From assembly GCA_963741395.1 (NCBI GenBank), contig CAVUHV010000001.1, positions 222,826 through 286,825 of the forward strand: DNA of 64,000 bases, given 5' to 3'. The notes below the pieces were generated by a model that did no database searches, was not told the origin of the DNA, and worked only from the letters and a program-made list of their open reading frames with translations. The position numbers and the translations under genes were made by a program. Below are positions 21,821 through 29,144 of the stretch, one piece after another (within the stretch, counting starts at the first letter, position 1; each line of letters begins with the position of its first letter). The stretch comes from an uncultured Acidobacteriaceae bacterium (GTDB lineage Bacteria > Acidobacteriota > Terriglobia > Terriglobales > Acidobacteriaceae).

Positions 21821-22648
21821 TCAGACCTCACGCAACACCAGCCCTGAATCGAACGTGAAAGGACGACCTATTTGGGACGTGCTCGCAACAGCGATTTCCT
21901 GCACGCTCATTGGCCCCGCGAGGAACGCGTTGCGGCCGCCCCTGATAGCTGTGGCAAAGGCACTCGCCATTCGAACCGGATCAAGAGCGCGCGATACAGC
22001 TGTGTTTAGCAGTACGCCGTCGAATCCCCACTCCATCACCTGACACGCGTGAGATGGAAGACCGATACCTGCGTCTACGATAAGTGTGATCTGCGGGGCG
22101 CGTTCACGCAGCTCCCGTAAAGCGCGCGGATTGCGTGGCCCCTGGCCGGTCCCTATGGGAGCGGCCCAGGGCATTAGTACCATACATCCAGCGTCGATGA
22201 GGCGTCTGCAAAGAATCCAGTCTTCCGTGCAGTACGGCAGAACGCAGAAGCCAAGTCTTATAAGTTCGACTGCAGCTTCAACCAAACCGAATGGGTCTGG
22301 CTGCAGGTTGAGTTCGTCTCCGATCACCTCGAGTTTTACGAAGTTGGTCTCGAACAACTCCCGTGCCATGCAGGCGGTTTTTACGGCCTCGCGAGCACTG
22401 AAACACCCTGCAGTATTTGGGAGAATCGCCCGCTTGCTCTCGCGAAGCAAGTTCCAAAATGATTGACCAGAATCCTTCGAGCCGGAGATTTGGCGACGGA
22501 GAGACACTGTAAGCATTGCAGGGTCCGCGGCTGAGATCGCATCGGCCAACAGTGATGGAGAATCATATCGGGCAGTCCCGAGAAGCAGACGACTCGAAAA
22601 ACTCTGTCCATACATATTCAGCTGATCTTCCATCTGTGGTCCATTCAT
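21821..22648 (-). CDS. thiG: Thiazole synthase
   Basis: LLLGTARY, LPNTAGC, VKLEVIGD, LMPWAAPIGTGQG, DAGIGLPS; start set at ATG 22648 behind GGGAGG. Confidence 0.95.
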   Translation of the reverse strand: MNGPQMEDQLNMYGQSFSSRLLLGTARYDSPSLLADAISAADPAMLTVSLRRQISGSKDSGQSFWNLLRESKRAILPNTAGCFSAREAVKTACMARELFETNFVKLEVIGDELNLQPDPFGLVEAAVELIRLGFCVLPYCTEDWILCRRLIDAGCMVLMPWAAPIGTGQGPRNPRALRELRERAPQITLIVDAGIGLPSHACQVMEWGFDGVLLNTAVSRALDPVRMASAFATAIRGGRNAFLAGPMSVQEIAVASTSQIGRPFTFDSGLVLREV

Positions 22649-22649
22649 T

Positions 22650-22847
22650 TCAACCTCCCGCCGTAGGGTGAACGATATCGATCCTGTCTCCTGTGGAGAT
22701 AATGCATTCCTCGTAGGTTCCTCGCGGAATAACCTCTTCATTGCGCGCTACGACGAACGGAACGACTGGTGAGAGAAACCGCAGTAACGCGTCGAGGGTT
22801 CGAAGTTCAGGCACAAGGCGGGCCTTGCCATTCACGATGACAAACAT
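22650..22847 (-). CDS. thiS: Sulfur carrier protein
   Basis: 65 aa, IVNG..., C-terminal Gly-Gly, lies between thiO and thiG. Confidence 0.93.
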   Translation of the reverse strand: MFVIVNGKARLVPELRTLDALLRFLSPVVPFVVARNEEVIPRGTYEECIISTGDRIDIVHPTAGG

Positions 22848-25831: not shown

Positions 25832-27445
25832 TCACCATGTCAAACTCGTGCGAAGAAGAAATACGTCCGCGTGGTGTTCATTGTTCGCCACCCCAGCGGT
25901 CATAGGGTTCCAAATGTGCTGATAACTCGGAATCAGCCTGAGCGCCGGAGTGATCGCGAAATCGTAGGAGACCTCGAGCCCATTCTCGTTTTTCACAGTG
26001 GCTGCGCCTCCGGTGAGCCCCTTGAAGTCATTTTTCAAAGGCTGACTGATTCCATCGTGATAGATTCCCAATCCAAAACTGTCGTTGGGCCTGTGATCAG
26101 AGAGGCCATAGGCAAACAACGCTACGCTCGCATCGCGCGTGATAGTGTTGGTGTCCTCTGGGGCATATCCGATGCGTCCAAACAGACCAATTCCTCTGAG
26201 TGACTGCCCGGTCCCGAGTTTCGCAGCGACCGCCTCAGGCCGATCTTTCACAAAGAGATACTGCGAAAAGTTCCCGATCGTAACCCAACTCTTTGCTTTG
26301 TAGTTGATGGGCAAAGCCTGAGCTGAAGGAGTTCCCAACAGAACTCCGACAGCCTGCGGAACTTCCGACGGCGACAACTGCCCAAACGGTGACGTCAAAT
26401 CGATCTTCGCCTTGTTCGTCCAGTTCGCCTGCCCCCAGTATTGGCCCGGCAAGTTGCCGATCTTATAGGAAAAGATTGTGATGCCGTAGATGTTTACCCG
26501 ATTGAAGGCGTTCGTGGCGAAATTATTCGCCTGGCTATTGGGATCGTACACGCCGGCAGATGCGGTAAGCCATTTTGACGGCGTCCACACCCCGATCCCT
26601 GCCCACGAGGTGGTGTTGTAAAAATTGAGGGCCATCGGATTTTTGTTGAAGTTCAGATTCGCGAAGTCATACTTGTAGCTGTTGCCGAAGAGGGTTTGGT
26701 CGGCGTGGGTGAGCACATTGACCTTTCCCATGATGACGGAGAATTTCGGCGTCAGAGACTGAAAGAGCAAATACTCCGTTGGGAGGACATCATGGACGAA
26801 GAAGGGACCTGGGAACGCAAGCCCGGTGTACTGCGGCACAGTAGCGCCCGCGGTAAAAGTATTTTGCGGTGAAGAGCTTCCATTTCTGGCTTCCAAGGTG
26901 ACGTGGATTACGCCGCCGGGCCAGAGTCCGGCGCGCCCGGTATCCAGATTCATCGAGAGCTGGGTGTTTTGTATGAAGGCGCTGCCGGTTTTGAGACCAC
27001 CTGAAGTTACATTTTGATATGCACTAACTGAGTAAAGATCAAAGAAATATCCATGACGAGCTAGATCTGTTCGAAACCCGCCCCAATCGCCACTCAATTG
27101 AGTGCGATAGCGGAAATCTATCGAGTCGGTTCCTGGAAGCCCGAACACGGGTCCGTTGTTGAGATATGGAAGGAGGTAGGGTGCCAAATTGACAACGGAA
27201 GCTTTTTTTGTTGGAACCGGGCCCCAAGAGGCAGCTGCATTCGCGCGTGAAAGCGCAGTCTTTTCTTTGACCGGATCATTGTCATGAGTTGGGTTGGCGA
27301 TCTCGTTCTGAGCCGCATCCATATCTGGCTGGCCGTCCATGTTGAGGGTTTGACCAAACAGGTTGTTTTGGGCGCACGGCGCCAGAAGTGCGAGTGCGAA
27401 AAGTACAGCTCTTCTGGCGCCTTTTGTGAACGTCGTTTTGAACAT
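25832..27445 (-). CDS. OprB-like outer-membrane porin
   Basis: Signal peptide, GDWGGFRTDL, GLWPGG, amphipathic beta strands, C-terminal Trp; start set at ATG 27445. Confidence 0.75.
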   Translation of the reverse strand: MFKTTFTKGARRAVLFALALLAPCAQNNLFGQTLNMDGQPDMDAAQNEIANPTHDNDPVKEKTALSRANAAASWGPVPTKKASVVNLAPYLLPYLNNGPVFGLPGTDSIDFRYRTQLSGDWGGFRTDLARHGYFFDLYSVSAYQNVTSGGLKTGSAFIQNTQLSMNLDTGRAGLWPGGVIHVTLEARNGSSSPQNTFTAGATVPQYTGLAFPGPFFVHDVLPTEYLLFQSLTPKFSVIMGKVNVLTHADQTLFGNSYKYDFANLNFNKNPMALNFYNTTSWAGIGVWTPSKWLTASAGVYDPNSQANNFATNAFNRVNIYGITIFSYKIGNLPGQYWGQANWTNKAKIDLTSPFGQLSPSEVPQAVGVLLGTPSAQALPINYKAKSWVTIGNFSQYLFVKDRPEAVAAKLGTGQSLRGIGLFGRIGYAPEDTNTITRDASVALFAYGLSDHRPNDSFGLGIYHDGISQPLKNDFKGLTGGAATVKNENGLEVSYDFAITPALRLIPSYQHIWNPMTAGVANNEHHADVFLLRTSLTW

Positions 27446-27470
27446 TGGTTGTGCCTCTAGTGGGTTGGAG

Positions 27471-29144
27471 CTAGTCCACGTTGGGTACCAGCGGCCGGAG
27501 TTGATGCGCGACGCGAATGGCAATTACGGTTGGTCCGTCGTTGCTGAGGGCTGCTTTGAAAGCCGACTTGATTTCCTCCGTTGTGTTGGCGGCCACTCCT
27601 ACACAACCAAAAGCCTTGGCCGTTGCGACAACATCGAGTCCAGCAGATCAAGCGCAGGCACATTAGGAGTTTTCTCAAGAACTGCGAACTCTTTGAGAAT
27701 GGCGTACTCGTCGTTGCACGGCACGATGTAGATGAGCTTTAGTTTCTGTCGAGCCGCCGTATAGAGGCTCTGTATCGAATACTGGAGAGCTCCATCACCG
27801 ATCGCAGCGATGACCGGGCGCCCGGTTCCCATCTTCTTCTGGGCAATCGCGATGCCGACCGCCGCCGGCTCTCCCCATCCGAGCCCGCCACTCGCAAAGG
27901 TGTAGTACGTACCGGGCTCGCTGATTGGCCAGCACTGGGCGAGATCCGCGAAATTAGAAGCTGTCTCGTTCACCAGAATGGCATTCGCGGGCCGCAACTC
28001 GCTCAATGCGGCGAATGCCTCAAGGGCCGTCAAGGGACTATTCGGTGGCGATGGAAGTTTTCGTTCGATGTGTGGTGCCGCAGGAGCGGGCCGCGACTTC
28101 ACTTCCGGGATTGCATCATTCAATGCCTCCAGGGCCAGCTTTGCGTCTGCCAACAGGCTGTCTCCTACGATAGCGGCGGCCGCGTCGTAGGGGTCATTGG
28201 TGATCTGCAAGAGTTCAGAACCCTCGGGAAGGTACTCTCCTGCAACGTAGGGGTAATACCGGAAGACCTGGGCTCCAACCACGATGATCAGGTCATGGCC
28301 GCGAAGCTTTTTGCTCAGTGGCCCAATCGCAATCGGGGCCATGCCTCGAAACTGCGGATGAGTTTGGGGGAAGGACGCTTTCTCGGATAGCGGCGTCATA
28401 TACACCGGAGCCCTCAAGCGCTCAGCAAACTTGATGCCGGCATCCCAGGCGCCTGCGCGCTCGATCTCAGGTCCATAAAGCAACACTGGATTTCTACTCT
28501 TCCGAATCTTTTCAGCAAAATGAGCAAGCCGCTCAGGGTCTGGCGAGTACCGCGAGCTTACAGTTCGGATGACCGCCTCTCCCAGAGCCGGCTTGTCCCA
28601 ATCGTCGAGCGGAATCGATAGGTAGACCGGGCCTGCGGGCGGTTGCAGAGCGACCGTATAGGCCCTCATGATTGCTCCGGGGACGTCTTGTGCCCTCAAA
28701 GGTTGATATGCCCACTTAACCCAGGGCTTCGGCAGGGTCGTCTCTCGCGGTTCGTAAGAAGCGGATCGCAAAGGATGATCTCGCGTGTCTGTTGACCCGC
28801 CGTAATGATGAGAGGCGTTTTATTCAGGAAGGCCGTCATGATGTTGCCCATGCCGTGCCCGGTTCCCGCTGACGTATGCAGATTCAGCAGCACTGGCTTT
28901 CCAGTAGCCTGAGCAAAGCCGTCTGCCATAGCCACGGCGGTCGCCTCCTGCAGCCCGAGTACATATTCGAAGTCGGCCGGGAGGTTCTAAGAAACGGCTG
29001 CTCCGTCGACCCCGGGTTTCCGAAAATCGTTGTCAATCCCAGCTTCCGTAAGAGGTTGTACGTAACATCCCAGACGGTCGGCTGCGTTTCGCGTCGCTCA
29101 TCATTGAGCGCCTCGAGAACTTCGGTTTGGCTATTTCTGCTCAT
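27471..29144 (-). pseudogene. mdlC: ThDP-dependent benzoylformate-decarboxylase-like enzyme, three -1 frameshifts
   Basis: FGNPGSTE, LGLQEA, NLHTSAG, GDGALQY; frames shift at about 28988, 28744 and 27642; restored C-terminus PGLDVVATAKAFG...GPTVIAI stops at 27471. Confidence 0.8.

Follow-up and report, generated by a model that had tools for sequence, protein, structure and literature searches.

The synthesis of thiamine (vitamin B1) is a textbook case of feedback by riboswitches. In Salmonella, the cob and pdu genes form a regulon under PocR, in which the synthesis of a cofactor is co-regulated with the enzyme that depends on it. A thiCOGE operon of rhizobia is said to have been described by Miranda-Rios et al. 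in 1997. This paper is among the references of PMC2258182. The locus described here is situated in a stretch of 64,000 nucleotides from an uncultured bacterium of the Acidobacteriaceae (the window means the whole of that stretch, and G000 is the genome from which it comes). In the window, the thiamine genes thiC, thiO, thiS and thiG (together, thiCOSG) follow a gene for an OprB-family porin and, before it, a gene resembling that for benzoylformate decarboxylase (BFD), an enzyme dependent on thiamine diphosphate (ThDP), and they have no recognisable riboswitch for thiamine pyrophosphate (TPP). The reading that we prefer, to which we would give an even chance, is that thiCOSG has lost its riboswitch and is now read from the promoter of the BFD and porin genes on a mobile accessory operon, the probable benefit being an extra supply of cofactor. 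Nothing on this cluster, or on the absence of riboswitches in Acidobacteriaceae, was found in the literature searched.

The features of the cluster are the following, in the direction of transcription (positions are those of the window).

29462 to 29421, minus strand: terminator-like hairpin of 17 pairs, just upstream of the leader.
29144..29275, minus strand: conserved leader/promoter region, with the palindrome GTGAGCTGACCGTTGCTCAC at 29249-29268.
29143 to 27471, minus strand: BFD-like ThDP gene, a pseudogene in the window.
27445 to 25832, minus strand: OprB-family porin gene, 537 aa, intact (PF04966, 91.6 bits against a cut-off of 22.9).
25783..25831, minus strand: conserved porin-thiC spacer, 49 nt, which includes a ribosome site of GAGAGGA type and has no room for an aptamer.
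25782 to 23938, minus strand: thiC, 614 aa, long form, intact (NF006763, 1026 bits against a cut-off of 650).
23941 to 22832, minus strand: thiO (glycine oxidase), intact (TIGR02352, 269.1 bits against a cut-off of 250.8).
22847 to 22650, minus strand: thiS (sulfur carrier), intact (PF02597, 39.4 bits; TIGR01683, 54.4 against 37.45).
22741 to 21821, minus strand: thiG (thiazole synthase), intact (PF05690, 316 bits against a cut-off of 23).

All six genes point in the same direction and are less than 50 bp apart, as the original prediction had it: the gap between the BFD and porin genes is 25 nt, that between the porin gene and thiC is 49 nt, and the other genes overlap (thiC/thiO by 4 nt, thiO/thiS by 16 nt, and thiG also overlaps thiS). 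The predicted absence of thiD, thiE and thiF from the cluster was borne out by Pfam searches with the open reading frames (ORFs) of the surrounding island, in which these genes were not found either. ThiC of the window comprises the ThiC-associated N-terminal domain (PF13667) and PF01964, and has CSMCGPKFC at residues 570-578, a C-terminal CX2CX4C which we take to be the ThiC cluster motif. The start of the porin gene was chosen by eye as the ATG preceding a signal-peptide-like N-terminus, so that the porin is putatively exported. When the window genes were compared with three or four other copies per gene (the pair of thiG with the copy from strain KBS 89, locus L013, being left out), the ratio of non-synonymous to synonymous substitution rates (dN/dS) was 0.07-0.14 for thiC, 0.15-0.18 for thiO, 0.15-0.21 for thiG and 0.17-0.26 for the porin gene; thiG of the window is 92-95% identical to other copies.

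The first gene of the cluster had been predicted to encode a decarboxylase. Its identity as BFD-like and ThDP-dependent stood: an intact homologue (L006) scores 627.4 bits with NF005485 (cut-off 493) and matches PDB entry 4q9d at 1.9e-203, the BFD of L002 (the second copy of the cluster in G000) carries the TPP_enzyme_N, M and C domains, and, judged by their sequences, the intact island homologues are true members of the BFD family. That the gene is intact in the window did not stand. Alignment by MAFFT with the intact genes of L002, L006, L012 (Tunturiibacter lichenicola MP8S11) and L013 places three 1-bp deletions near 28990, 28745 and 27644; three-frame translation has the reading frame shift three times, and in Pfam searches the longest ORF (27599-28771) is without the N-terminal ThDP domain. 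Contigs of relatives, from soil and rhizosphere runs, have an extra base at 28744 and at 28987.

It had also been predicted that no TPP aptamer is recognisable and that none fits the 49 bp before thiC. This held: a scan of the window with the Rfam models (cmscan) gave no match to RF00059 at the gathering score, only a tRNA being found, none to RF00059 at E<=10 in positions 21000-31000, and none of any Rfam family in the spacer. RF00059 had no match in the whole of G000, and the same program found TPP aptamers at 68.4 and 66.4 bits in two positive controls, L044 and L045 (loci in genomes G121 and G086, respectively). A hidden or divergent aptamer was considered and rejected, as cmscan at E<=10 was empty at the cluster, at the second copy, at the native thiC locus and in two relatives. 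The native thiC, thiG, thiD, thiS, thiO-like and thiE-like genes are scattered elsewhere in the genome (the thiO-like gene at 235 bits, just under the cut-off, and the thiE-like gene a weak match at 60 bits), and the native thiG, thiE-like and thiD/thiS loci likewise gave no TPP aptamer (E<=1-10). Just upstream of native thiG are another OprB porin gene and a gene for a CsoR-type metal repressor (L069 3682-5777).

In this lineage it is normal for the riboswitch to be missing, also at native thiC. RF00059 was found in 0 of 25 genomes of the genus, in 5 of 150 genomes of the family and in 1 of 16 genomes of a sister family; these surveys were filtered searches in which part of the first-look candidates were scored (the genus tallies, here and below, include the unpublished genome G009, and those of the sister family the unpublished genomes G029, G034, G035, G036, G038 and G040; these enter into the counts only, and no locus was read from them). 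The premise that thiC operons are usually riboswitch-controlled fails for the genus and holds for the long-form thiC of the family, which is present in 5 genomes of the 150-genome sample. In G048, G086 and G121 a TPP aptamer immediately precedes long-form thiC, which in G086 and G121 is followed by thiO, thiS and thiG; in G055 long-form thiC is cut by the contig end; in G000 neither copy of the cluster has an aptamer. Because all three assessable long-form thiC operons outside the island bear the riboswitch, the island thiCOSG most likely descends from a riboswitch-controlled unit, and the switch would have been lost on fusion behind the porin gene. Two of the rare TPP riboswitches of the order (L001, L030) precede genes for large signal-peptide proteins, not thiC; these could be outer-membrane thiamine uptake proteins.

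Alignments of 8 genome loci with 8 metagenome contigs show about 130 nt upstream of the BFD start to be conserved: their pairwise identity is 90%, and that of the most variable codon position is about 80%. A 20-bp palindrome, GTGAGCTRACYGTTGCTCAC, precedes both the BFD gene and orf334 (a gene further upstream, described below; 31939-31958 for the latter). There are five exact sites in the genome, four of them in the two clusters (those on contig 2 are at G000:C2:603313, 603496 and 604731), and the palindrome is degenerate in L006, L012 and L008 (E. aggregans). Upstream of the leader, the hairpin at 29421..29462 would insulate the operon from a PanE-like gene. A scan found no such hairpin in the intergenic gaps of the operon, and two minus-strand hits inside the coding sequences of the porin and BFD genes. 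Two weak hints of a long transcript come from RNA-library contigs of relatives: one (X20 record 28, about 89% identical) bridges the porin-thiC junction at 25556-25867, and another reaches from the BFD gene past its ATG to a point 84 nt upstream. We infer that one transcript starts at the leader promoter. The prediction of a single operon without riboswitch fits this anatomy, and the arrangement is conserved in other genomes.

Several other functions for these sequences were considered and rejected. The leader is not a structured RNA or new riboswitch as far as its fold goes (z-score of the minimum free energy +0.39 against shuffles), and the 16 sequences vary too little for covariation. As a leader peptide, the short TTG-started frame has non-synonymous changes and an indel, by eye. 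For a sigma-54 promoter, a consensus scan gave 6 hits in the window versus 4.9 expected, none of them in the leader, where GG-N10-GC was not seen by eye either. The palindrome was rejected as a genome-wide thiamine operator, as there are only the five exact sites and none is at the native thi genes, and as an enhancer site, as it is too close to the start of orf334.

That the operon is mobile, as had been claimed, is supported by an integrase, a tRNA-Cys gene and 45-bp direct repeats in the window, by a second, divergent copy in the same genome, and by patchy occurrence among relatives. The features of the island are the following.

19359..19403: att-like direct repeat on the distal side, matching the 3' 45 nt of tRNA-Cys at 100% (blastn within the window).
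19595..20758, plus strand: AAA_14/DUF4143 ATPase gene, island cargo (PF13635 at 1.8e-47, PF13173 at 2.6e-26).
30911..31958, minus strand: orf334 pseudogene, for a signal-peptide, beta-rich protein, a probable outer-membrane channel.
32122..35070, plus strand: PAS-domain sigma-54 activator, two ORFs at 32122-33552 and 33772-35070 (PAS_3, Sigma54_activat, HTH_8).
38889..40022, minus strand: tyrosine integrase (PF00589 at 2e-16, PF14659; phrog_1 integrase at 1.5e-55).
40122-40166: proximal repeat, the 3' 45 nt of tRNA-Cys (blastn).
40122..40197, minus strand: tRNA-Cys (GCA), the integration target (ARAGORN; Rfam tRNA, 68.1 bits).

The 45-bp repeat has just two copies genome-wide. The 20.8 kb between them hold the DUF4143 ATPase gene, the cluster from thiG to the BFD gene, the terminator-like hairpin, the PanE-like gene, the orf334 pseudogene, the PAS/sigma-54 activator, further regulators and the integrase, and the G+C content of this island is only slightly below that of the right flank. 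The left flank (window 1-19358) contains FG-GAP/ASPIC, TPR, multihaem cytochrome-like and GMC oxidoreductase genes. In none of 40 genomes of the genus is the left flank found at the same place as tRNA-Cys, and no empty site was identified; because it is not beside tRNA-Cys in these relatives, the left flank may itself be variable DNA. Among 72,556 plasmid records of PLSDB, none covers at least 80% of the query and none carries the cluster; thiC alone matches 410 records, mostly of Rhizobium and Sinorhizobium.

Of the other island genes, orf334 is 63% identical to its intact copy in L002 (tblastn) and has in-frame stops, including a nonsense codon; it has no Pfam match, and PF13557 on 11% of the members of the nearest Atlas cluster is a lead only. 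The sigma-54 activator is oriented divergently from the cluster. The window has it as two ORFs (476 and 432 aa) and the metagenome contig L025 as a single ORF of 749 aa; in L002, to whose copy that of the window is 96% identical, it is N-terminally truncated to 323 aa.

G000 has three thiC genes: the window copy, that of the L002 cluster on contig 2, and a short-form native thiC on contig 5, which is common to 23 of 24 relatives in the genus. In L002, all six genes of the cluster are intact. The window and L002 copies are separate acquisitions, since their ThiC proteins are about 80% identical, as against 90-95% between the window copy and copies in other genomes and metagenome contigs; there may have been later gene conversion at the thiG end, as the synonymous divergence (dS) is 0.12 for thiG but saturated for thiC. 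No tRNA or integrase was found within about 40 kb of L002.

Elsewhere the cluster is patchy. The island-type porin together with long thiC occurs in 2 of the 24 sampled genus relatives (G002 and G018), G003 having only a porin paralogue of 27% identity, and the leader sequence is present in 2 of 301 genomes of the family. When species-representative genomes were scanned, related porin loci turned up in 9 genomes of Acidobacteriaceae or Acidobacteriota, as did one further porin, of 51% identity, in Isosphaeraceae. The original prediction had called for a search for intact clusters elsewhere: by tblastn, the six genes are full-length in five loci (L002, L006, L012, L013 and L015), and the six-gene order is partly decayed in six more genome loci (L004/L007 and L005/L011 being counted once each). 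The carriers of the six-gene order are Edaphobacter, Tunturiibacter and KBS 89 genomes. Two long soil-metagenome contigs (L022 and L025) agree with this order from the BFD gene through the porin gene and thiC into the beginning of thiO. Part of the decayed loci are in metagenome-assembled genomes, where some of the fragmentation may be assembly error. The states of decay are as follows.

G002: thiC and thiO in pieces.
G018: BFD gene, porin gene and thiO fragmented.
E. aggregans: a truncated thiO, with no thiS or thiG.
T. gelidiferens: fragments only.
E. modestus, in both of its copies: only the porin gene and a stub of thiC (29-41 codons).

Several of these loci have neighbours of their own. 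In E. modestus, the porin gene and thiC stub stand behind a cassette of genes for a CoA-transferase III, an LDL-receptor-repeat protein and a 3-hydroxyacyl-CoA dehydrogenase, and the same arrangement is present twice in one strain, on the chromosome and on a 492-kb record (L009 4031-9633 and L010 3921-9660). In KBS 89 (L013 9801-11063) and E. aggregans (L008 9641-11160), a gene for a Tat-signal bicupin lies between the porin gene and thiC. The bicupin has 420 aa and two Cupin_1 domains, and presumably is oxalate-decarboxylase-like; where it is inserted, the 3' end of the porin gene and the spacer are duplicated. The cluster of G018 has a tRNA-Phe gene about 400 bp downstream of its thiG (L005 13651-13725), which points to an insertion linked to another tRNA in that genome. 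In G086 (L045 6272-12820 / L047), BFD and thiCOSG lie together in a second and different way: thiC-thiO-thiS-thiG stands behind a TPP riboswitch, and about 730 bp further downstream comes a BFD gene which is 91% identical to that of the island type, with a porin stub of 39 codons and an orf334-like gene beyond it. Possibly this is what is left of an island that recombined into a resident thi operon.

Taken together, the preferred reading would work as follows. A horizontally mobile accessory operon of the Acidobacteriaceae (Edaphobacter/Tunturiibacter group), of which the window cluster would form the distal part, would comprise a promoter and leader with the 20-bp palindromic candidate operator, the BFD-like gene, the OprB porin gene and thiC-thiO-thiS-thiG, in this order; in the window, it would be the cargo of the 20.8-kb island integrated at tRNA-Cys. 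The thiCOSG unit, which is of the long form that is normally under TPP-riboswitch control, would have lost the switch and come to lie 49 nt behind the porin gene. Since it stands there without a riboswitch, it is most likely transcribed from the BFD-porin promoter and would escape end-product feedback. Whenever the ThDP-dependent catabolic module is switched on, extra enzymes for the pyrimidine and thiazole halves of thiamine would be made, and the cofactor would be completed through the native genes scattered elsewhere (thiD, the thiE-like gene and the others). Such co-induction, by the operon, of its own cofactor supply is plausible. In the window copy, the enzyme gene and the putatively co-regulated orf334 have decayed, with the porin gene and thiCOSG kept intact at low dN/dS.

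A number of points weigh against this. The ThDP enzyme gene is dead in the window copy, to which the proposed cofactor benefit is therefore inapplicable; this copy may have been made redundant by the intact one on contig 2. The source reads against which the frameshifts could be checked were not found (the best sequencing run contained 18% of the sampled words). The lack of a riboswitch is usual in the genus and thereby less exceptional than the original prediction assumed. The BFD-porin and thi modules decay independently, BFD being lost in the window and thiC and thiO broken in G002, and E. modestus keeps just the porin gene and the thiC stub; independent decay speaks against a strict functional dependence of the modules. 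The RNA-library contigs, coming from relatives only, cannot prove a single transcript. Neither the scan nor inspection by eye found a sigma-54 promoter at the BFD or orf334 leaders, despite the adjacent activator. Finally, a single additional enzyme may need little cofactor.

The main rival is that the thiamine genes are hitch-hikers, i.e., that thiCOSG is island cargo which landed behind the porin gene, has been kept there by linkage, and is transcribed by read-through without any adaptive tie to the ThDP enzyme. The independent decay of the modules in different genomes is what would be seen in that case, as are the junction of porin gene and thiC behind the different cassette of E. modestus, the bicupin gene inserted between porin gene and thiC in KBS 89 and E. 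aggregans, and the presence of a native thiamine pathway. However, the order of the genes and the spacer are conserved across at least seven lineages, the thi genes of the window have low dN/dS, and G086 has its BFD gene beside thiCOSG in another arrangement, which implies that the pairing of BFD and thiCOSG arose or was kept more than once. On balance, we regard mere hitch-hiking as less likely than the preferred reading.

It is considerably less probable that thiCOSG has thiamine-responsive control of its own, by a promoter or operator in the porin 3' end or the spacer and a protein regulator or an undescribed small RNA element. The spacer is indeed conserved, at 49-52 nt in 10 loci (alignment by eye), and the native thiC of the genus is without a recognisable riboswitch, so that either a non-riboswitch mechanism exists or regulation is absent. 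However, no sigma-70-like site was found on the minus strand in the porin 3' end or spacer; the spacer folds no better than shuffled sequence (z-score of the minimum free energy +1.24), for which reason it was also rejected as a structured RNA; and the Rfam searches were empty, as stated above. Upstream of native thiC (L003 7502-7734), 19 sequences of the genus share only the box GCGTATACT, about 30-45 nt before the start, and the spacer has no motif in common with it.

The decay of the BFD gene is taken as real, with a small chance left for assembly error, because orf334 is also broken, partly by a nonsense substitution, and the adjacent 5.6 kb are free of lesions. That the frameshifts are assembly errors, with an unbroken BFD gene in the organism and a fully working operon in the window, would fit a genome assembled in 7 contigs at 91% completeness (in which long-read indel errors are possible), three lesions that are all 1-bp deletions, and source reads that were not found, yet it is improbable in view of the absence of indels and other frame-breaking lesions from the adjoining 5.6 kb of porin gene and thiCOSG, of deletion sites none of which is a long homopolymer, and of the nonsense substitution and frame changes in orf334, which point to real decay of that half of the island.

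If loss of the riboswitch and transcription from the BFD-porin promoter are indeed what happened, a complete thiCOSG unit, carried on a mobile element, would have exchanged regulation by its end product for regulation by a pathway in which the cofactor is used. Thus, cofactor supply could travel packaged with a catabolic trait by horizontal transfer. In its widest form, the proposal is of a mobile “cofactor-on-demand” module, in which a thiamine block freed from riboswitch feedback would be driven in a feed-forward manner by the promoter and palindromic operator of an operon for uptake and a ThDP enzyme, and spread by integrative islands between soil Acidobacteriaceae, a lineage that otherwise makes thiamine without riboswitch control; this we put forward tentatively, at somewhat less than an even chance. 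Most sampled Acidobacteriaceae have no recognisable TPP riboswitch, which raises the question of how abundant soil bacteria regulate the synthesis of vitamin B1. Cultured carriers of intact clusters exist (Tunturiibacter lichenicola MP8S11 and strain KBS 89), so that the idea is directly testable.

The cluster can be set beside several known systems. With the riboswitch operons of G121 and G086 (L044/L045) it shares the order thiC-thiO-thiS-thiG and the long-form ThiC, at identities of 77% for ThiC, 54% for ThiO and 66-70% for ThiG; unlike them, the island has no TPP aptamer, and its thiC is preceded, at a distance of 49 nt, by a porin gene, where they have a riboswitch leader. The rhizobial thiCOGE operon is counted among the TPP-riboswitch-controlled relatives, and the island is without thiE. 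Compared with MdlC of the mandelate pathway (NF005485; PDB 1bfd, 4q9d and 4k9q), the intact island homologues score above the equivalog cut-off, and their alignments with BFDs of solved structure cover the full length. Unlike in the MdlC setting, the island BFD gene is paired with an OprB porin gene, the putative outer-membrane orf334 and thiamine genes, and is a pseudogene in the window; no mandelate racemase or dehydrogenase genes were found near it by Pfam searches of the window and island ORFs. As in known islands integrated at tRNA genes by a tyrosine integrase, such an integrase gene lies beside the 3' end of the tRNA, with an exact repeat at the far end 20.8 kb away; unlike in those, no conjugation or excisionase genes were recognised in the window island. 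The closest analogy in regulation would be cob/pdu of Salmonella, which follows the same logic, the synthesis of a cofactor being expressed together with the pathway that uses it. Unlike in Salmonella, the cofactor here is thiamine and not B12, and the genes appear to be fused in one putative transcript on a mobile island.

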